A program made the translations under genes and the position numbers. The notes below the pieces were generated by a model. The model made no database searches, had not been told where the DNA came from, and saw only the letters and a list, made by a program, of their open reading frames with translations. This document shows positions 9,628 to 30,455 of a stretch of 64,000 nucleotides of DNA, in pieces. The DNA is from an uncultured delta proteobacterium. Its GTDB lineage: Bacteria > Desulfobacterota > Binatia > UBA9968. The DNA is taken from contig CAVUZH010000014.1 in NCBI GenBank assembly GCA_963745835.1, positions 566,756 to 630,755 of the forward strand. Direction: 5' to 3'. Each line of letters begins with the position of its first letter. The first letter of the stretch is position 1.

Positions 9628-10687
9628 ATGGAGAGCATTGAAGTATTAGTCATCCCGCAGGTCTCCGATCAGGTACTCGAGCGCATCGCCAAGCTGGATC
9701 CCCGGATCAAAGTCGTCGATGTCCGGGGATGGTTTGACGTAGAGCTTCGCGCCAGCTGGCCGCAGTGGACCATCGATCGTTATCTTGGCAATCGAGACTA
9801 TCCTGCGAGCACCCTCGAACAGCGCAACCGCGCCTTGGCCTCGGCGCAGATCGTCCTTCTGGGCTGGCCGCCATTGAAAGATTTATTTAGCCGCGCGCCC
9901 CGCCTGAAGTGGGTCCATGAACTCCCAGCCGGCGCGAGCAATCTCGTCGGCACCGATTTATGGGGAAGCGATATTATCGTCACCACCTCACGCGGGCTCA
10001 CCAACAAGCGCCCGATGGCCGAGTATGTCCTGGCCGCTTTCCTCCACTTCTCTCGCGGGCTTCATTGGAGCTACAGGGATCACCGACGCCATCGGTTCGA
10101 GCATCGAACTTACAATCCCATCATGCTCCGGGACAAGACCGCATGCGTTGTCGGCGCGGGCGGCATCGGCCGGGAAGTGGCAAAGCTCTGCGCAGCGGCT
10201 GGGATGCGCGTCGTCGGCACGCGCCGCCTTGCCGATCCGGAGGCGAAGCCGCCACCAGGGTTTGCGCGCTTGGAATCCGCCGGCGCTCTGCACAATCTCC
10301 TGCGCGAGAGCGAATTTGTCGCCATCTGTTGTCCTTGGACGAAAGCAACCACGCACCTGATCGACGGAGCGGCGTTTGCGGCGATGAAATCCGGGACGGT
10401 TTTAGTCAACATCTCCCGCGGCGAAATAATCGATGAAGATGCTTTGATGCGATGCATTGGCCGAACGCAAGCTTCGCGGCGTCGCTCTCGACGTTTACGA
10501 CGGCGAATTCGAGCGCCCGCCTGATGCGCGCTTGTGGGACGATGAGCGCGTCGTCATCACGCCCCACGTTTCTGCGGCAACCGACGTATCGGAACACGGC
10601 GGCGTGAACTTGTTTTGCGAAAACCTGATCCGCTTTCTCGAAGGCCAGCCGTTGGAGAATGTCATCGATTGGCAGCGCGGATATTGA
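9628..10687 (+). CDS. D-2-hydroxyacid dehydrogenase (frameshift near 10450)
   Basis: VVGAGGIG and VNISRGEIIDE in ORF 9628-10524 continue as GVALDVY..TPHVS in ORF 10457-10687. Confidence 0.88.
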
Positions 10688-15389: not shown

Positions 15390-16632
15390 GTGAAATCTCT
15401 TAATCGCTTCTCGCGTATGTCTACGGGACTTTGGTTCGTTCCGTTGATGTGCGTGCTCGCAGGCGTCGGTCTATCGTTTGGCACAATTGCCATCGATAAG
15501 GCCTACGACTATGAGCTTATCCCGCAGTCGATCAGCGGCGGTCCCGACGCAGCGTTGGAGATTTTGGGAACGGTCGCGGCATCGATGGTCAGTCTTGCAG
15601 CACTTGTACTGACCATCACCATGGTGGTCGTGCAACTCGCAATGGGTCAGTTCTCGCCACGAATCGTCCAGCGCATCCTGCAGGACAAACCCAGCCAGCT
15701 CGCCATTGGCACTTTTGTAGGGACTTTCGCGCACGCCATGCTGACGCTCCGCGAAGTGCAAACCGGAAGCGAGGAACGTGGTTCCCGGCGTCGCTGTGAT
15801 CCTGGCCTTCGTGCTCGTCATCATCAGCATCATGGTGCTTGTCTGGTATGTGAATCACATCGGACGCTCTCTGAGAGTATCAGCGCTGATCGAGCTTGTC
15901 GGGACAGATACACGCAAACTGCTCGATAGGCTCTATGCAGATGCTGGCGAGACACGCAGCCCTGAACGGCCGACGATCTGCGCGCCCCACTCGGGCGTGA
16001 TCACTCAGATAGATCACAAAGAGCTGGTGCGAATTGCCGAGGCGGGGAATTGCGTTCTGACGCTTCTGCCATCACTGGGCGAATTTGTGCCGGCAGGCGC
16101 GCCGCTGTTCGAGATTGCGGGCGCACCCGATCGGATCGACACCGACGCCACGGTGCGCGCGATCCAGCTTGGCCCCGAACGGACTCTTGACCAGGACGTG
16201 GCCTTCGGCCTGCGGATGCTCGTCGACATCGCCGAGCGGTCGCTGTCCGACGGACCGTTTCTCGATCCGACGACGGCAGTCCAGGCAATCGATCGGCTGC
16301 ACGATTGCCTGCGCCAGCTGGCGCCACGTTCGTTTCCTGACGGTCGATTCCGCGACGACAAGGGCGAGGTGCGGTTGGTGACGCCGTCGATGACCTGGGA
16401 GGACTATGTCCACCTTGCGTTCGATGAAATCCGAATGGCGGGCGCGGGATCACCGCAAGTTGCACGTCGACTGCGCGCAGCTCTGCAAGACTTGCTTACG
16501 ATTGCGCCGCCGGAACGTCAACTTGCGCTGAAGGAGCAGCTTACTTTACTGCAGTCCGGTATTGAAAGCGCCATCGGCGAAGGGAGCGACCGCACCTATT
16601 CCAAGCGCGGCGATCCACGCGGACTCGGTTGA
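15390..16632 (+). CDS. DUF2254-like membrane protein (frameshift near 15775)
   Basis: VVQLAMGQFSPR in the first ORF. QDVAFGLRMLVDIAERSLS and DPTTAVQAIDRL in the second. Confidence 0.85.
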
Positions 16633-20385: not shown

Positions 20386-21374
20386 TCACGGCCGAATTTT
20401 ATACTTTCGCTCGATCTCTTCGACATAGCCGCTTTTGACTACCTTTTCGAGAATGCGCTGATCGAGAAGATCCTCGACGTTGTATTTCGCTATTTTGGGA
20501 TCACGCAGCGCGACGATCTCCTGCACGGTTTTCAAGCCTTTGACCGTCACAAAGGTATACGACGTCAGATCATCGAGGAGAAGCTTGTATCCTGTTTCTG
20601 CGAGTTGCCTGTCTGTCTTGATATGTTTCTGCAGAACGGCGACACCCTTTTCTTTCTGAGCGCGCATAACCGCACTCGCTTCTATCATCGCTTTAATAAA
20701 GTTCTCAACCGTCTGAGGATTTTTTTGAATGAAAGACTCCGCGCTCATATAAGGGCTGGAAGGAAGAGCGATCCGGCTCAAATCTAGCAGCACTTTGACC
20801 CCTAGGCCTTGGAGCCGCACCGATTGCAATTTATCCAAAGCGGCTCCGTCGATAATCCCGTTGCCAGAGCTTGGGCGATCACAGTGCTATCGCCAATCGC
20901 CTGGATACTGATGTTATCCCTCTGAGGATCCAATCCCATTTCTCTCAGCGACAACATAGTAAGGCTCCAGAGAAGCCCGCTGAAATCCTGTACGCCGACT
21001 TTTTTACCTCTCAGGTCGCGCGGATTGGTAATCGAAGGCGATACCAAAAAATCGTAGGACGCTCTTTCGGCGAACAGTGACAAGAGAATTTTGAGCTTCG
21101 CCCCCTGCGCCGCGGCGGAAAGCATACTCGACGCGCTGCCACGGACAAACTGCACCTCATTAGAGACCAGAGCCGAAACTTGCAGAGGCGCGCTGCGGAC
21201 GGTGACAAGATCCGCCTCCAATCCATGCTTGGCAAAGATTCCTTCGTCCTTGGCAAGCCAGAGAGGAGTCCCCGCCGCAGCCACACCGGAGTACGCAACT
21301 CTGATGGACTCGGCCTGAAGCGGTGAAGCAAACAGAACCACAGCTATAATGATCGAGAATGTTTTGGCAAGCAT
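20386..21374 (-). CDS. NMT1/SsuA-type substrate-binding protein (frameshift near 20850)
   Basis: LWLAKDEGIFAKHGLE and DLRGKKVGV. The C-terminal half is in ORF 20386-20838. Confidence 0.87.
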
Positions 21375-21643: not shown

Positions 21644-21772
21644 CAAGATGTCAGTACGAGGATGGTTTACACGCATGTATTGAATCGCGGCGGACGAGGG
21701 GTGCGAAGTCCGGTCGACAGCTTAGGAGCCGGGCTCGACGGTCATTTCGATGATTATAATATACGGAAATAA
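21644..21772 (+). pseudogene. intI: 3' remnant of an integron integrase
   Basis: Translates as QDVSTRMVYTHVLNRGGRGVRSPVDSL, the characteristic IntI C-terminus including the catalytic Tyr. No upstream integrase sequence is present. Confidence 0.85.
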
Positions 21773-21859
21773 CTTTCGGCTTCTATCGGATGACTCGTTT
21801 ATGTGCCTTTACAAGGTATTGTTCTAGTTGTAAAAGCGATTTAACTCACACATATGAGC

Positions 21860-21914
21860 CACGCTATACAGAAGTTATAAAGTTCTATAAAGAACCAGAT
21901 ATTATTGGTTAGGC
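21860..21914 (+). other. putative attI recombination site
   Basis: AT-rich segment (AGTTATAAAGTTCTATAAAG) ending in GTTAGGC (21908-21914), the exact complement of the GCCTAAC that closes the first cassette. Confidence 0.55.
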
Positions 21915-22838: not shown

Positions 22839-22919
22839 GCCTAACAAACGGCTTGAGAAGGACCTTCGACCCGCTCGCTCCGCTCGCTGGCCTCGCCCTC
22901 TCAGCCCGATACGTTAGGC
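22839..22919 (+). repeat. attC site 1
   Basis: GCCTAAC..CGGCTTGAGA...TCTCAGCCCG..GTTAGGC. Confidence 0.9.
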
Positions 22920-23566: not shown

Positions 23567-23604
23567 CGCTGTTCGAGCTGGCGCTTGCCTCTAGACGCGA
23601 CAAG

Positions 23605-23692
23605 TTCGGGAACGACGTGAGAGCGGACCCGCGGTCTCGGCAGACTGGAAGCCCAACGAGGGCGCTCGCGGCTGAGCACTTGTCCGTTAGCA
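23605..23692 (+). repeat. degenerate attC site 2
   Basis: The right half (CGCGGCTGAGC...GTTAGCA) is recognisable but the left core site is eroded. Confidence 0.5.
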
Positions 23693-24377: not shown

Positions 24378-24435
24378 GCCTAACCAATCGCTTCAGACCG
24401 ATCGCTAAGAGCGCCGCCTGAGCGTGGCGTTAGAC
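24378..24435 (+). repeat. attC site 3
   Basis: GCCTAAC..CGCTTCAG...CTGAGCG..GTTAGAC, 58 bp. Confidence 0.88.
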
Positions 24436-25380: not shown

Positions 25381-25447
25381 GTGTAACCACCGGCTGGAGA
25401 GTGACGCTCCGCGAGCGCAGCGGGCATCTCACCCGGACACGTTAGAC
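25381..25447 (+). repeat. attC site 4
   Basis: GTGTAAC..CCGGCTGGAGA...TCTCACCCGG..GTTAGAC. Confidence 0.85.
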
Positions 25448-25935: not shown

Positions 25936-26023
25936 GTCTAACCCGCGCCTTAAGACTGATGTCGAGAATGCTCGCCTTTAAGGCTCGCTTCTTTCGCCAC
26001 GGCTTAGCCGCATCGAGTTAGAC
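25936..26023 (+). repeat. attC site 5
   Basis: GTCTAAC...GCTTAGCCGC..GTTAGAC. Similar to attC6 and attC9. Confidence 0.88.
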
Positions 26024-26027
26024 CTCG

Positions 26028-26816
26028 ATGTCGTTCAAAGGAGGACAAGTGACTTGTTATGCGGTACATCTCGGCGATTGTGCAGGAGGTCTCTCCAAGG
26101 AGCACTACGTGTCGGCGTCGGTTCTGGAGATCGCGGGGACGGCTGTTCAAGTTACGGGCTTTCCATGGCAACCGGGGGGTGAGACGGCGCAAATCGGTAC
26201 TGCTTCGCTCGCGGCAAAAATCTTATGCAAGCATCATAACGAACAGCTCTCGCCTCTTGATTCGGTCGCGAAAGTATTTCTTTCTGGCCTGAAGGCGAGC
26301 TTTCAAGAGGCATCCGAGAATCGGTTGTCGAATAGCACGTATCAAACTTCCGGCAGCTCCTTCGAGCTTTGGTTACTCAAAGTTCTCTGCGGATTACTGC
26401 CACTTTGGAAGGTCGCTGTCCCGCACACGTGGGTCGACATTCTTTTCCAGCGGAATCCCTGGCCCCCCGAAGCCGGGTTGCACATTTTCGGAACTCCTGG
26501 GGTTGCTAGCTGGTACTTTACACTTGTCAGGGTAATGTCGGTTATGGCTACAGAGGACCCGAGCCGAATTGCAGGAGCGAAGTTCGGGATCGGAGGACTC
26601 GCGCTGCTTCTCGCCTTGGGCACACCTAGGTTTACCGAGCCAGGTATGCAAGCGTTGTATAGGCCAGCAGGCTTATTAATTGAGAGAGACGGAAAACAGA
26701 ATGAGCATGTGCTGTCGTGGGATGATCACGGCGCACATGGGACCATGAACCTCCGAATAACCGGCGAGATAGCGAGCGGGGTGGGACCTCGGCCAATCGT
26801 TGAGCCGGCAGGCTAA
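26028..26816 (+). CDS. hypothetical protein with HNH-like motif
   Basis: CY....C...SKEHYVS and KILCKHHNEQLSPLD. Confidence 0.75.
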   Translation: MSFKGGQVTCYAVHLGDCAGGLSKEHYVSASVLEIAGTAVQVTGFPWQPGGETAQIGTASLAAKILCKHHNEQLSPLDSVAKVFLSGLKASFQEASENRLSNSTYQTSGSSFELWLLKVLCGLLPLWKVAVPHTWVDILFQRNPWPPEAGLHIFGTPGVASWYFTLVRVMSVMATEDPSRIAGAKFGIGGLALLLALGTPRFTEPGMQALYRPAGLLIERDGKQNEHVLSWDDHGAHGTMNLRITGEIASGVGPRPIVEPAG

Positions 26817-26891
26817 CATGAAGACCGATGTCGAAACCGCTCGCCTTCAAGGCTCGCTTGTTCATCACGAATTAGCCGCATGGCGTTAGCT
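26811..26891 (+). repeat. attC site 6
   Basis: GGCTAAC...ATTAGCCGC..GTTAGCT. The left arm is shortened relative to attC5 and attC9. Confidence 0.8.
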
Positions 26892-26894
26892 TTT

Positions 26895-27275
26895 ATGGAT
26901 GACATTGCCGGTAAGATGAGAATCCCTGACTGGGAGTTCAGAGTTGTCATAGGAACGACGAAAATCGATTATGATCTAGATAAGGAATACTCGAATCGCG
27001 AGAAGCATGGCTATTCTCTTGCGAGCGCCGTTTCGCTGCTTGAGCGAATCGTGTTCCCGTTTGGAGAATCGCTACCGAGCATGACCAGCGATGGCTTCAT
27101 GGAAGGAGGTGAGGTTCGCCACATGCACATGAGCGTGGATGACTCATACAACGTAGTACTTATGGTGACGACCATGCGCGACGATGAAACCGTGAGGATC
27201 ATTTCTTTTCGTCGAGCGAGTGAGGAAGAACGTGAGCAGTTCTATCAGAACACGGGCTTTCGGGAGCGCGTATAG
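26895..27275 (+). CDS. BrnT-like (DUF497) ribonuclease toxin
   Basis: DYDLDKEYSNREKHGYSL...VRIISFRRAS. Confidence 0.8.
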   Translation: MDDIAGKMRIPDWEFRVVIGTTKIDYDLDKEYSNREKHGYSLASAVSLLERIVFPFGESLPSMTSDGFMEGGEVRHMHMSVDDSYNVVLMVTTMRDDETVRIISFRRASEEEREQFYQNTGFRERV

Positions 27276-27276
27276 A

Positions 27277-27361
27277 AGCTAACCCGCGCTGGAGCCGACC
27301 GCGAGATCCAGTGATAGATGGCTCAATTGTACACTAGCGGCTCAGCGGCATAACGTTAGAC
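27277..27361 (+). repeat. attC site 7
   Basis: AGCTAAC..CGCTGGAGCCG...CGGCTCAGCG..GTTAGAC. Confidence 0.87.
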
Positions 27362-27377
27362 TCAGGGGAGTGGCACT

Positions 27378-28259
27378 ATGCCTTTCAGCTACGTCCAATT
27401 CATGACCGAATTAATGGCCCCCAAACGTTATCCGCGGCAACCCGTTTTTGCACCACCCGGGCTGACCCCGTTACGTAAGTCGATTTCCCGATCAACCATC
27501 GGCATCTTCACCAGTGCTGGCATTCAACTTCGCAGCGATACGCCTTTGGCTGAGACCAATGACCTCTCCTACCGCCTCATTGATCGCGCCGTTCCTTACT
27601 CGGACCTAACTCTCGCCCACCAGACTCCCGTCAGGGTTTGGGCGCTGGAAGATTTAAATGTTGCGTTTCCGCGAGAACGGCTCGCCGATCTTGAAGCCGA
27701 GGGAACTATCGGCCGCTTGGCGTCGCGAGCTGTCTCCATGGTGGGCTCGATCACAACATTTACGGGGTTACTGGAAAAAGTCGTGCCTGCAATTCAACGA
27801 GAACTCGAGGACCAGGGTGTCGATCTGCTTTTTCTATTTCCTTTTTGACCCGCATATCATCGGTCCGTCGGACTGATCGCGAGAGCGCTCGAAGCAAGAG
27901 GATTGCCCACCTTGTGTATGAGCACCCTTTGGGAAAACAGCATGGCGTTTAAGCCGCCGCGCACGGTTTTTCTCGATTTTCCGCTGGGCTGCCCTGCTGG
28001 GAAACCGAATGAACCTGAATTGCAGCGCATGATCCTGCGTGCGGCTCTGGAAGCAGCACCTCTTTTTGGCGAGCCCTGGAGGATCGCGCAACTTCCTTTT
28101 CAATGGTCCGAGGACGGTAATCGGGATTGGGAAGAACGCGTTAGAGAACTCTATCGTAAAGGTTTAGGAACTGTGGAGGCCCATGTGGCCGATCATCAGG
28201 CGAAGGGCGAGTCTCTCGTCGGTCAAGAAAAGGAATTCGCAATTCGGTGTAATTGCTAA
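27378..28259 (+). CDS. glycine/sarcosine/betaine/D-proline reductase selenoprotein B-like protein with in-frame TGA (Sec157)
   Basis: ORFs 27378-27848 and 27903-28259 share a frame. Motifs IGIFTSAG, DLNVAFP, PF-TGA-PAYHRSVGLIARALEARGLPT and PPRTVFLDFPLG. Confidence 0.88.
27859..27877 (+). promoter_or_regulatory. candidate bacterial SECIS hairpin
   Basis: ATCGGTCC-GTC-GGACTGAT starts 10 nt after the TGA (27846-27848). Confidence 0.7.
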
Positions 28260-28293
28260 AAACCCGGGCTAAAGTCCGTTTATCAACAGACTT

Positions 28294-28375
28294 GTCTAAC
28301 AATCGGCTTGAGACAGACTTTCGGACCCGCTCGGCTTTGCTCGCTGGCCGCGAACTGCTCATCCTTGCGTTAGAC
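28294..28375 (+). repeat. attC site 8
   Basis: GTCTAAC..GGCTTGAG...CTCATCC..GTTAGAC. Similar to attC1. Confidence 0.85.
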
Positions 28376-28416
28376 AGAGAACGGCCGTGCGGTATGCTTC
28401 CCTGAGTCGAAGGTTT

Positions 28417-28631
28417 ATGAAGAATGAGTTTACCGCGATCATCGAACGCAATGGAGATTGGTATATCGCCTATGTCCTGAGATTCCTGGCGCAAATGGGC
28501 AGGCTCGAACCAAGGATGAAGCTCGGGAAAATTTAGCCGAAGCTATCGAACTGATTCTTGAGGACCGGCGAGAGGATGCGCTCCGTGGAGTTCCGCCCGA
28601 CGCGATTCGCGAGACCGTTACGCTCAAATGA
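28417..28631 (+). CDS. hicB: HicB-like antitoxin (1-nt frameshift near 28473)
   Basis: MKNEFTAIIERNGDWYIAY / PEIPGANGQARTKDEARENLAEAIELIL. Confidence 0.8.
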
Positions 28632-28801
28632 AACGGAGCACGCTGCTCCAGCACTTGCGCAGGCACGGCTGTTCTCACTCGTTCTGGACGAACCCAGCGA
28701 GCGGCGCCGTGGAAGCGATCCCGCGTCACACCGAGATTTCCAACCGCCTTGCCAGGAAAATTTGTCGAAGTCTTTCCATACCGCAAATTGGCGAGGAGTA
28801 A
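28628..28801 (+). CDS. hicA: HicA-like toxin, apparently with a short in-frame deletion
   Basis: MKRSTLLQHLRRHGC-SHSFWTNP..EAIPRHTEISNRLARKICRSL. ATGA overlap with hicB. Confidence 0.78.
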   Translation: MKRSTLLQHLRRHGCSHSFWTNPASGAVEAIPRHTEISNRLARKICRSLSIPQIGEE

Positions 28802-28806
28802 TTCCC

Positions 28807-28893
28807 GTCTAACCCGCGGCTTAAGAACGATGTCGAAACCGCTTACCTTCAAGGCTCACTTGTTCATCACGGCTTAGCCGCAGCGCGTTATAC
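28807..28893 (+). repeat. attC site 9
   Basis: GTCTAAC..GCGGCTTAAG...CTTAGCCGC..GTTATAC. Confidence 0.88.
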
Positions 28894-29540: not shown

Positions 29541-29592
29541 GTATAACATTCGATCGAGCCGACGAGACCGCGGGTCATCGTTAACGTTAGCC
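29541..29592 (+). repeat. attC site 10 (short)
   Basis: GTATAAC..CGATCGAGCCG...CGGGTCATCG..GTTAGCC, 52 bp. Confidence 0.78.
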
Positions 29593-29608: not shown

Positions 29609-30160
29609 GTGGAACCCCTAATTGATGCCATTCAGAGAGACCTGCTAGATCCCAAGACCCTTATCGGAGCGTTGGTTTGGGGCGTCGTGTTCATTGGTAT
29701 TGCGGCCGTACTAGCGGCCGGGGTTCGCAAGTTTGCTCAGCGCGTCGAGTCACACCTGTCGGACGTTACTGGACTTCGATTTACCAGCGCATTTGCCCAG
29801 GTGGTGGTATACGTGGTGGCGTTTATCTTGTATAGCCATCTCATCCCTGAGCTGCGCACACTTGGAACAACACTTCTCACGGGCGTCGGCATCGCTTCTG
29901 TGGTTCTTGGTCTTGCTGCCCAGAATACGCTGGGCAATCTGGTCGCAGGAGTATCGCTGGTGCTTTACAGGCCCATCCGAATAGGCGACAACCTGCAGCT
30001 GAATACTCCAAGGGGGCTAACGACTGCGACTGTGGGGGTGATCTCTCTCGGTTATACTGTTCTTCGTGATGCTGACAGCCACGAGATAATTGTCCCTAAC
30101 AGCGTGATGGGTAGCAGCGTAGTCATTCGGCTCAGTGGATATTCCAATACCGCCGGCTAA
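29609..30160 (+). CDS. MscS-family mechanosensitive channel (short form)
   Basis: VLGLAAQNTLGNLVAG, RPIRIGD and IIVPNS. Confidence 0.88.
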   Translation: MEPLIDAIQRDLLDPKTLIGALVWGVVFIGIAAVLAAGVRKFAQRVESHLSDVTGLRFTSAFAQVVVYVVAFILYSHLIPELRTLGTTLLTGVGIASVVLGLAAQNTLGNLVAGVSLVLYRPIRIGDNLQLNTPRGLTTATVGVISLGYTVLRDADSHEIIVPNSVMGSSVVIRLSGYSNTAG

Positions 30161-30225
30161 TAAGGCGCTGCAGCTGACGGCCAACCCGCTACGCGGCATG
30201 TCCGCAGCTGACTTGATCGTTTACG
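30155..30225 (+). repeat. attC site 11 (degenerate cores)
   Basis: GGCTAAT..GCTGCAGCTGACGG...CCGCAGCTGA..GTTTACG. Confidence 0.7.
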
Positions 30226-30300
30226 CGGACGTGAACAATAGTGAACGAGAGTACATTGGAGAGGTGTCTTCATTGTTGGCGGGAAACGCCGTCAGCTCGC

Positions 30301-30455
30301 GCCGCTTTCCGTCATTGGCAAGGCAATCGAAGACGGACGCTGTTCAAAAGACAACGAAGACTACCGCCACTTCGAGCTGCTGTTTGGCGAAGTGGAAGCG
30401 CGCCACTCCCTCACCATGTTCGCCTATGTCTTGACGCCTAATCATCTCCATCAAC
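30301..30455 (+). pseudogene. remnant of a REP-associated / IS200-like Y1 (HUH) transposase
   Basis: Frameshifted translation GNRRRTLFK / DNEDYRHF...MFAYVLTPNHLH matches the RAYT N-terminal motifs. Confidence 0.7.

Follow-up and report, generated by a model that had tools for sequence, protein, structure and literature searches.

A stretch of 64,000 nucleotides (nt) from an uncultured delta proteobacterium (Desulfobacterota; Binatia; UBA9968; assembly GCA_963745835.1, contig CAVUZH010000014.1, positions 566,756 to 630,755), referred to as the window hereafter, contains an array of integron gene cassettes, one of which carries a reading frame with a single in-frame TGA codon. We put the probability at about 0.85 that positions 27356-28369 of the window are a genuine integron cassette, the eighth of about ten, which carries a stand-alone gene for a 293-residue selenoprotein of the PrdB/GrdB superfamily. 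The frame keeps its TGA codon in nearly all full-length relatives examined as DNA, the selenocysteine insertion sequence (SECIS) hairpin downstream of this codon is under constraint, the host has the machinery for selenocysteine (Sec), and the same cassette is found, with exact borders, in multiple array contexts. What is preserved here is a formerly mobile cassette in an array without an integrase, and the active site of this copy may be damaged. The 293-codon frame, the TGA at codon 157 and the hairpin after it had been pointed out in a preliminary description of this DNA, and their coordinates were all verified (Table 1).

The in-frame TGA codon and its conservation

When open reading frames (ORFs) are called with translation table 11, the frame is split into an ORF of 156 amino acids (aa) and an ORF of 118 aa that starts at TTG 27903. 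In public gene calls, pieces of 156 and 113 aa are likewise separate proteins. A homolog search over 5.8 billion proteins gave 318 matches of near full length, and a search for shorter proteins gave 575 matches; the figures given here come from the 120 proteins listed in each search. Position 157 was Cys in 16 of 16 aligned homologs, and it aligned with the Cys of a C-P-x-C motif in all of the 120 listed full-length homologs. Of the 120 listed short proteins, 112 end exactly at 156 aa, in FP[F/I/L], and they are 74-97% identical to the N-terminal half of the protein. Because these 112 proteins have this length, the closest relatives are all seen to stop at the same codon.

The DNA of the homologs was then taken into account. 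Seven genome loci and 37 metagenome loci were fetched, and the 33 loci that span the whole gene were used, while 11 partial loci (L042, L047, L055, L056 and L058-L064) were left out. TGA was found at codon 157 in 31 of the 33 loci, down to 62% identity at the aa level, and it was followed by P-A-C in 30 loci and by P-Q-C in one. The two exceptions are a Cys form with TGC (L027) and a frameshifted locus (L057). Apart from the TGA, 28 of the 31 loci are intact, and the remaining three (L021, L041 and L053) have further defects. The ratio of nonsynonymous to synonymous substitution rates (dN/dS), obtained for six pairs with unsaturated dS, was 0.08-0.18 for codons 1-156 and 0.06-0.15 for codons 158-293. 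It was also found that the 18 codons between the TGA and TTG 27903 are among the most conserved in the protein. Together with the attC sites that follow the gene in three loci (L028-L030, see below), these counts of TGA and Cys at position 157 are the outcome of the homolog survey that the preliminary description had proposed. Two separately translated genes, which had been named there as the alternative, are not what the homologs present: the Cys forms are single chains of 294 aa, and the Sec forms have a single frame in which purifying selection acts both before and after the TGA. The UGA at codon 157 is thus best read as a Sec codon, at which Sec would be inserted.

The SECIS hairpin

In bacterial Sec decoding, a hairpin in the mRNA recruits SelB carrying Sec-tRNA(Sec). 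The hairpin found here lies inside the frame (Table 1), and two comparisons show that it is constrained. One is that the block CATCGGTCCGTNGGACTGAT is identical in the 31 loci save for the third base of the loop: all stem bases are invariant, while the flanking synonymous sites vary freely. Another is that the synonymous-codon entropy of codons 161-167 was 0.25, the lowest of 108 seven-codon windows, as compared with a mean of 1.14 for the gene. The entropy was calculated for 27 non-identical intact sequences, after duplicates (L033, L044 and L050), broken genes (L041, L053 and L057) and the Cys form (L027) had been dropped. In the Cys form L027, no equivalent hairpin was found.

A distant paralog in the same genome (L066; C13:879242-880009; 35% identity) also has one TGA, in the motif U-P-F-C. 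Its hairpin, ATGAGACC-GTC-GGTCTCAT, is located at the same distance of 13 nt and has the same 8-bp stem and GUC loop; three of the eight pairs are changed and are still paired. The case for a SECIS rests on this conservation and covariation, not on energy. The cassette does carry its own SECIS, as had been described on first inspection, with an invariant stem and low synonymous entropy, but this is the rule for bacterial selenoprotein genes and not a special property of the cassette. Distant matches resembling L066 (31-37% identity, one TGA) occur in many of 41 related genomes, and L066 looks like the core copy of the lineage.

The cassette borders and the integron array

The cassette proper was delimited by the G|TT crossover rule (Table 1). 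The GTTAGAC at 27355-27361 is the end of the upstream site, attC7, and the cassette's own site is attC8. In the preliminary description, the cassette started at GTTAGAC and ended at GTCTAAC; the end was loosely given, as GTCTAAC forms the 5' core (R'') of attC8, a site that ends in the GTTAGAC at 28369-28375. The architecture of attC8 is canonical: the R''/R' cores are 7 bp long, the spacers measure 4/4 nt, and the L''/L' stem consists of GGCT[T]GAG versus CTCATCC, with one extra base on the 5' arm. As for attC7, 19 of its first 25 bases pair with its last 25 bases, and the homology shared with three other copies of the cassette begins at its GTTAGAC core.

For the recognition of attC sites, a home-built covariance model was trained on eight sites that included neither attC7, nor attC8, nor the three orthologs of attC8, and the window was searched with the filters off. 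This analysis gave 48.5 bits (E-value (E) 1.7e-9) for attC8, and it recovered the five training sites that lie in the window and a new site at 25381-25447 (E 0.006), that is, 7 co-oriented sites at E<=0.01. Three putative sites read by eye come on top of these. By pattern and fold, sites were found on the plus strand at 22839-22919, 24378-24435, 25936-26023 and 28294-28375, and by eye, on the same strand, near 23590-23680, 26811-26891, 27277-27361, 28807-28893 and 29541-29591. A scan that demanded ungapped identity of the arms gave no match, because attC arms carry bulges. A loose pattern scan gave many false positives in the window (17 on the plus strand), and we kept the YCTAAC...GTTAGRC sites alone, which are confined to 22.8-28.9 kb of the window. 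Over the whole genome (7.3 Mb), the model had 10 matches at E<=0.001, of which 6 are in this array.

At the head of the array lies a remnant of intI (Table 1), which points toward the array and shows 83% nt identity over 65 nt to the 3' ends of the intact intI genes of relatives. The attI-like region that follows is co-directional with the remnant and the cassettes. It has blocks in common with the region 3' of the intact intI in L083, as seen by blastn and by eye, and L079 shares ..ATGGTTAGCG.. and the GTTAGC core region; it would have functioned as attI. Because the integron lost its integrase, movement at the present day would need IntI in trans.

The cargo of the other cassettes comprises a methyltransferase, an HNH protein, an alpha/beta hydrolase, a BrnT-like toxin, a weak HicB/HicA-like pair, a LysE transporter and ORFs without a family. 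Toxin-antitoxin cassettes are typical of sedentary chromosomal integrons, and the array resembles such integrons in this respect (BrnT-like and HicBA-like cassettes), in its about 10 co-oriented cassettes, in having several attC sites of one sequence family, and in cargo mostly without known function. It differs from them in that a cargo gene needs UGA recoding, in that the intI remnant faces toward the array, not away from it, and in that the integrase is truncated. The selenoprotein gene may be expressed at present. In RNA runs, the share of sampled words was small (0.05-0.12), a figure that speaks neither for nor against expression.

The same cassette in other arrays

The closest relatives of the gene, L028 (96% aa identity), L029 (93%) and L030 (92%), all on metagenome contigs, are cassettes too. 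Inside the borders, the nt identity to 27356-28369 is 94.3% for L028, 89.9% for L029 and 88.8% for L030. Outside the borders, the identity in global alignments is 46-55%, and the drop occurs exactly at the attC cores. All four copies start with TTAGAC directly after a G, which in L028-L030 is 14-16 nt 5' of the start codon, and an attC orthologous to attC8 is found 3' of the gene in L028, L029 and L030. Upstream, L029 has a different attC of 62 nt, and in L028 and L030 the sequence is unrelated and continues to the end of the contig. In all four arrays, a different cassette comes next. The hexamer that follows the 3' G depends on the context (TTAGAC, TTAAGC, TTAGAC and TTAGGC), as the G|TT crossover predicts. 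The cassette has therefore moved between arrays. In the upstream sequences of L028 (1-52) and L030 (1-70), two TTTTGAC repeats and no visible R'' core were seen before the contigs end; these sequences could represent an attI, in which case the selenoprotein cassette would open the array, or the terminal part of a long attC.

Among homologs at 90% aa identity or less, no such attC sites were found. Some attC-like candidates near the homologs L031, L049/L050 and L053 were not counted, as their cores are non-canonical (TTCAAC/GTTGACA etc.); L031 is slightly ambiguous. A tree of 36 rows was built from 30 full-length loci together with the window, and 5 Cys proteins served as outgroups; L041, L053, L057 and the partial loci were left out. 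In this tree, the four cassette copies form one clade (99/94), which is nested in a 15-row clade (100/99) of non-cassette genes. The topology fits a single capture followed by spread.

Among 41 related genomes, a close form of the gene (E<=1e-140) was found in 5, including the host; within the genus of the host, 2 of 8 genomes have it. An IntI above the cut-off was found in 10 of the 41. These tallies include the unpublished genomes G012 (both tallies) and G018 (gene tally), and the five gene-bearing genomes are all published. A route for the horizontal spread of selenoproteins, which had been suggested from this sequence, is borne out so far as three other arrays contain this cassette, bordered exactly from core to core, but transfer between species would be a further step.

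The Tyr codon at position 160

The second residue of the U-x-x-C motif is encoded by TAT (Tyr) in the window (Table 1). The motif of this copy is thus U-P-A-Y, versus U-P-[AQ]-C in all of the 31 other Sec-type loci and C-P-x-C in the 120 listed Cys-type proteins, and L028 has TGT at this codon. The UxxC motif reported at this position on first inspection is consequently not that of the cassette copy, which reads U-x-x-Y (C160Y).

The window was compared with contigs from four public runs. Over 26700-28118 (1419 nt), one contig of run X3 departs from the window at 2 places, one of which is A>G at 27856, giving Cys, and a contig of X7 also has G at this base. Only the X3 and X7 contigs cover base 27856, which those of X1 and X8 do not reach, and neither supports the A. 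The dN/dS between the window and L028 was 0.13, which is no higher than among the other copies and shows no relaxation. The changes private to the lineage of the window are R17, L79, E133 and Y160. Because the near-identical X3 contig reads Cys160, the Tyr, which is private to this assembly, is either a very recent mutation, and the gene then a recently disabled allele, or an error of base calling or assembly.

The protein family

The best-scoring curated family for the read-through protein (P0001) is NCBIfam PrdB, TIGR04483 (E 1.6e-35, 122.7 bits), with residues 22-244 aligned to positions 13-235 of the 238 in the profile; the score is a long way under the equivalog cut-off, which is 300. The Pfam family GRDB (PF07355) was passed narrowly (22.6 bits versus a gathering cut-off of 22), and only the last third of the GrdB profile is matched (positions 221-341 of 347). 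The score for TIGR01918, 31.9 bits, is below the cut-off of 65.45, and there were weaker profile matches on GrdF, GrdB and GrdH. Because the cut-offs of the PrdB equivalog and TIGR01918 were failed and that of GRDB was barely passed, the protein is placed as a distant member of the PrdB/GrdB superfamily and not as PrdB itself. Its earlier assignment to the GrdB/PrdB family holds for this distant relationship, but not for the stricter families.

The 120 listed near-length homologs are at most 64% identical to P0001. The Cys forms among the homologs are single 294-aa chains (55-62% identical), labelled 'D-proline reductase (dithiol) PrdB' or hypothetical protein; in length and architecture they agree with P0001, with Cys in place of Sec. 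The only Cys-form locus inspected as DNA, L027, is without the SECIS hairpin and without attC sites. C205, C291 and C293 are invariant and common to the Cys forms, and the motif around position 157 is F-P-F-[C/U]-P-A-C-H-R. As compared with PrdB, there are about 50 extra C-terminal residues, which end in an invariant C-x-C. The subfamily comprises hundreds of database clusters, and the nearest named metagenome-assembled genomes that bear homologs are those of Candidatus Binatia, Syntrophobacteraceae, Syntrophobacter and 'delta proteobacterium'.

PrdB carries Sec in a redox motif of the U-x-x-C type. P0001 resembles PrdB in being a short single-domain protein with Sec in such a motif, and it differs in that a PrdA partner is not adjacent, either in the window or at 13 homolog loci, and in that the cassette copy has Tyr for the Cys of the motif. 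With GrdB, GrdF and GrdH (PF07355), it shares a Sec in the homologous region; in contrast to P0001, that profile describes a protein of ~430 aa, of which only the C-terminal third is matched, and P0001 has no adjacent GrdA or GrdE. The GrdB motif is given as UxxCxxC in a 2026 review (PMC13188914).

As for the structure, phmmer found no solved structure of a relative (0 matches), and a profile search gave one irrelevant match (E 0.88). The AlphaFold model has a predicted local distance difference test score of 84.7, and it places residue 157 between a strand (150-154) and a helix (158-173), at the N-terminus of the helix. A Foldseek search of this model against the PDB gave no match at E<=0.001. 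A fold match by VIA-align was rejected, as the best Z of 7.7 (7yyl_C) lies within a plateau of generic alpha/beta folds, and no fold was assigned.

The Sec machinery and reductase partners of the host

The genome was checked for selABCD, as had been recommended. The genes selA (608.6 bits), selB (394.3 bits) and selD (383.4 bits) are found together on C22, all above curated cut-offs, and selD itself has one TGA. A tRNA-SeC(tca) was found by aragorn on C13, and there are further TGA-containing selenoprotein genes in the genome. The quality figure of this genome is 9.33% contamination; a shared origin of the contigs is assumed, and the GC content is uniform (0.525-0.556).

The usual partners of such reductases were also looked for. 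PrdA, GrdE and GrdA were not found among the 31 window ORFs scanned, and the surroundings of 13 non-cassette homologs, with 46 ORFs scanned, contained no PrdA, GrdA, GrdE or PrdC. Because the partners are not found at these 13 loci either, standing alone is a trait of the whole subfamily. The recurrent neighbours there are Amidohydro_2 proteins, NMT1-type binding proteins, glutathione S-transferases and MOSC proteins. The statement that no usual partner is nearby is accordingly correct for the window and these loci, but the genome does have a GrdA gene (with one TGA) and five Gly_reductase-family (GrdE/PrdA-type) genes on C3 (1192467-1203229, 673743-674942 and 759875-761047). Three of the five cluster with GrdA within about 11 kb. 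The host itself seems to run reductases of the glycine/betaine type.

Evaluation of the alternative explanations

Several results weigh against the reading of 27356-28369 as a selenoprotein cassette. With respect to the protein, membership in PrdB proper fails, and the Tyr of the U-P-A-Y motif is matched by no relative and by neither of the public contigs that cover base 27856. With respect to the hairpin, the folding energy was not unusual as compared with shuffles (z 0.04). When the whole window was compared with Rfam at gathering thresholds, there were 0 matches. With respect to the cassette, no integrase above the TIGR02249 cut-off was found in the genome, and the array may be a fossil. 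The upstream site attC7 has one mismatch to RYYYAAC, a score of 6.9 bits (E 2.6) with the home-built model and a fold z of -0.15; with this model, the covariance-model test proposed in the preliminary description was thus passed by attC8 but not by attC7. The fold of attC8 is itself no better than those of shuffles (z -1.41). In addition, about 5.5 kb separate the cassette from the attI-like end, and L028-L030 are known as metagenome contigs only, a limit on any statement about transfer between species.

How far do these points favour other explanations? If the TGA were a true stop, the locus would be a pseudogene or two genes, one for a 156-aa N-terminal protein and one for a 118-aa protein from TTG 27903. 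Table 11 yields exactly these two ORFs, and the public calls list 156-aa and 113-aa pieces separately; however, the stop would then sit on the codon of an invariant active-site Cys, be kept in 31 of the 33 loci between two regions under purifying selection, precede 18 codons that are among the most conserved in the protein and be followed on its 3' side by a constrained hairpin, and the Cys-form homologs are single chains of 294 aa. Because the alignment with Cys, the conservation of the TGA and the purifying selection on both sides concur, we regard the pseudogene and two-gene explanations as ruled out in effect, that is, as extremely improbable. It is also very improbable that the gene is an ordinary, fixed one and that the flanking inverted repeats are not recombination sites, their likeness to attC being due to chance or to another repeat family, such as one like repetitive extragenic palindromes (REP-like). 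The insignificant score of attC7, the unremarkable fold energies, the lack of a working integrase and the loose attC-like patterns elsewhere in the window would all fit this explanation. Nevertheless, the homology to three contigs starts and stops exactly at GTTRRRY cores and the sequences are unrelated beyond them, the 6 nt that follow the 3' G differ from one context to another, the array opens with a 3' remnant of intI and an attI-like region, the YCTAAC...GTTAGRC sites are restricted to 22.8-28.9 kb of the window, and the more distant homologs are without such sites.

A different kind of explanation concerns the state of this copy and is compatible with its nature as a selenoprotein cassette: it may be a dead or dying allele in a fossil integron, so that nothing works or moves today. 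Cys160 is invariant in the 31 other Sec-type loci and the 120 listed Cys-type proteins, and C160Y removes the resolving cysteine; moreover, no IntI of the genome exceeds the cut-off, any promoter lies far from the cassette, neighbouring genes are broken (the DUF2254 and NMT1 genes are each in two frames, and the HicB-like ORF of cassette 9 is frameshifted), and four aa changes are private to this lineage. On the other hand, the dN/dS of 0.13 to L028 is not raised, the SECIS and the remaining frame are intact, and the near-identical X3 contig reads Cys160. We consider a dead or dying allele possible, though rather unlikely.

Proposed decoding, function and significance

Under the reading as a selenoprotein cassette, UGA157 would be decoded as Sec by means of the in-frame 8-bp GUC-looped hairpin 13 nt downstream, which would recruit SelB. 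Because the SECIS is inside the ORF, the cassette would be self-contained and should function in any host with selABCD and a SelB that accepts the hairpin. The present host, which has all four sel genes and an endogenous paralog with a SECIS of the same shape, would probably be such a host. The cassette probably originated from one capture of an ordinary chromosomal gene of the Sec-type subfamily, and attC recombination has since put it into at least four array contexts.

In the modelled structure, Sec157, between a beta-strand and the N-terminus of a helix, and Cys160 would form a redox-active U-x-x-C pair. On this basis the subfamily is predicted to be a thiol- or selenol-based reductase with Sec157/Cys160 as the active pair, and C205 and C291-x-C293 are candidate relay cysteines. 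Because PrdA, GrdA, GrdE and PrdC are not among the 46 neighbour ORFs at the 13 loci, the subfamily appears to work without the classical partners. To judge from the genes beside the non-cassette homologs, the subfamily may serve in the reduction or detoxification of small molecules and not in Stickland fermentation. As a tentative extension, which we hold to be doubtful at present, the integrons of selenium-using soil bacteria may circulate Sec cassettes as plug-in, free-standing selenoenzymes, in which the C-terminal C-x-C may replace partners of the GrdA/PrdA type as a redox relay. If this were true, any host with a SelB accepting the GUC-looped hairpin would gain a new selenoprotein in a single recombination step, and integrons would be an unrecognised route of selenoproteome expansion that is missed systematically by cassette surveys.

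Bacterial selenoprotein genes are patchily distributed, and horizontal transfer is often invoked, but to our knowledge concrete vehicles of their transfer have rarely been shown. Here a vehicle is visible: a 1-kb cassette with exact recombination borders, found in four arrays, with the UGA and the SECIS both on board. So far as we know, integrons can carry any gene and a bacterial SECIS always travels with its ORF; a selenoprotein gene is thus a new kind of cargo for a known element, which extends known biology and overturns nothing. As standard gene callers split such a gene into pieces of 156 and ~113-118 aa, catalogues of cassettes would show two unknown ORFs. Because the callers cut at the UGA, Sec genes would be absent from these catalogues as one selenoenzyme. 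An abundant stand-alone subfamily without a solved structure or an assigned function is also a reasonable biochemical target.

Full-text literature searches found no paper on a selenoprotein gene in an integron cassette; most subscription journals are outside their coverage, so that absence from print is unproven. The nearest hits mention selenocysteine lyase only (PMC1382264; preprint 10.1101/2025.02.12.637893). The 2026 review, which covers the GrdB motif and PrdB, contains no occurrence of 'integron', 'plasmid' or 'mobile' (PMC13188914).

Features of the cassette and its surroundings

The coordinates of the features are collected in Table 1. At the position equivalent to that of the Shine-Dalgarno-like sequence, L028-L030 have GAGGAG.

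Table 1. Coordinates of the selenoprotein gene, its cassette and the head of the array in the window
Feature	Position	Strand	Description
intI remnant	21644-21724	+	Last ~27 codons, ...VSTRMVYTHVLNRGGRGVRSPVDSL; TIGR02249 positions 289-315, 27.9 bits
attI-like region	21725-21914	+	Ends in core GTTAGGC (21908-21914); putative attI
attC7, putative	27277-27361	+	AGCTAAC...GTTAGAC, 85 nt, atypical; site of the preceding BrnT-like cassette, directly after the stop of ORF 26880-27275
Gene cassette proper	27356-28369	+	TTAGAC...G, 1014 nt; cassette 8 of about 10; G|TT crossover rule
Shine-Dalgarno-like sequence	27365-27370	+	GGGGAG, 7 nt 5' of ATG; putative, from the sequence
Selenoprotein coding sequence	27378-28259	+	293 codons and TAA; one frame with a single in-frame TGA; distant PrdB/GrdB-family member
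UGA codon 157	27846-27848	+	Predicted Sec codon; context LFLFPF*PAYHRSVGLIARALE
Codon 160	27855-27857	+	TAT (Tyr), second residue of the U-x-x-C motif; TGT or TGC (Cys) in relatives
SECIS hairpin	27859-27877	+	ATCGGTCC-GTC-GGACTGAT; 8-bp stem AUCGGUCC/GGACUGAU, loop GUC; starts 13 nt after the U of UGA, inside the frame
attC8	28294-28375	+	GTCTAAC-AATC-GGCTTGAG...CTCATCC-TTGC-GTTAGAC; the cassette's own attC; ends with GTTAGAC 28369-28375

The product of cassette 7 (26880-27275) is a BrnT-like ribonuclease toxin (E 2.9e-10), and an obvious BrnA partner is absent from the cassette. The listed start codon of this ORF is inside attC6, and the true start is probably further downstream. Cassette 9 (28387-28801) carries the weak HicB-like/HicA-like pair (E 0.003 and 0.011, under the Pfam cut-offs), in which the HicB-like frame is broken: the X7 and X8 contigs have one extra T after 28472, and X3 matches the window. 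Further split frames were seen outside these cassettes. The DUF2254 gene at 15390-16632 is in two overlapping frames (profile positions 3-119 and 120-367), and the gene for an NMT1-type binding protein beside the intI remnant (20386-21374) is also split in two overlapping frames; each may be due to a frameshift or an assembly error. After the last putative attC, an MscS-like channel gene (29609-30434) is seemingly in two pieces (ORFs of 183 and 99 aa), and it may belong to a further cassette or to the chromosomal flank.

Outside the array, there are four attC-like model matches, one of them near another integrase C-terminal fragment of 61.7 bits (C14:6808-6894 and 9668-9790, C18:532884-532965, C15:279074-279131 and C3:1446042-1446124); these matches and the fragment suggest further integron remnants. 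Finally, two joints were found in the contigs of the public runs. The X7 contig joins 26818, the end of cassette 6, to 28805, the start of attC9, with 18 extra letters, skipping cassettes 7-9 (32-nt side), and X3 has a joint of 27361 to 28293 (27-nt side). These joints are too short-sided to interpret, and they may stem from related attC sites that belong to other arrays; the X7 joint may also reflect a variant of the array or an artefact of repeats, as attC6 and attC9 are 88% alike.

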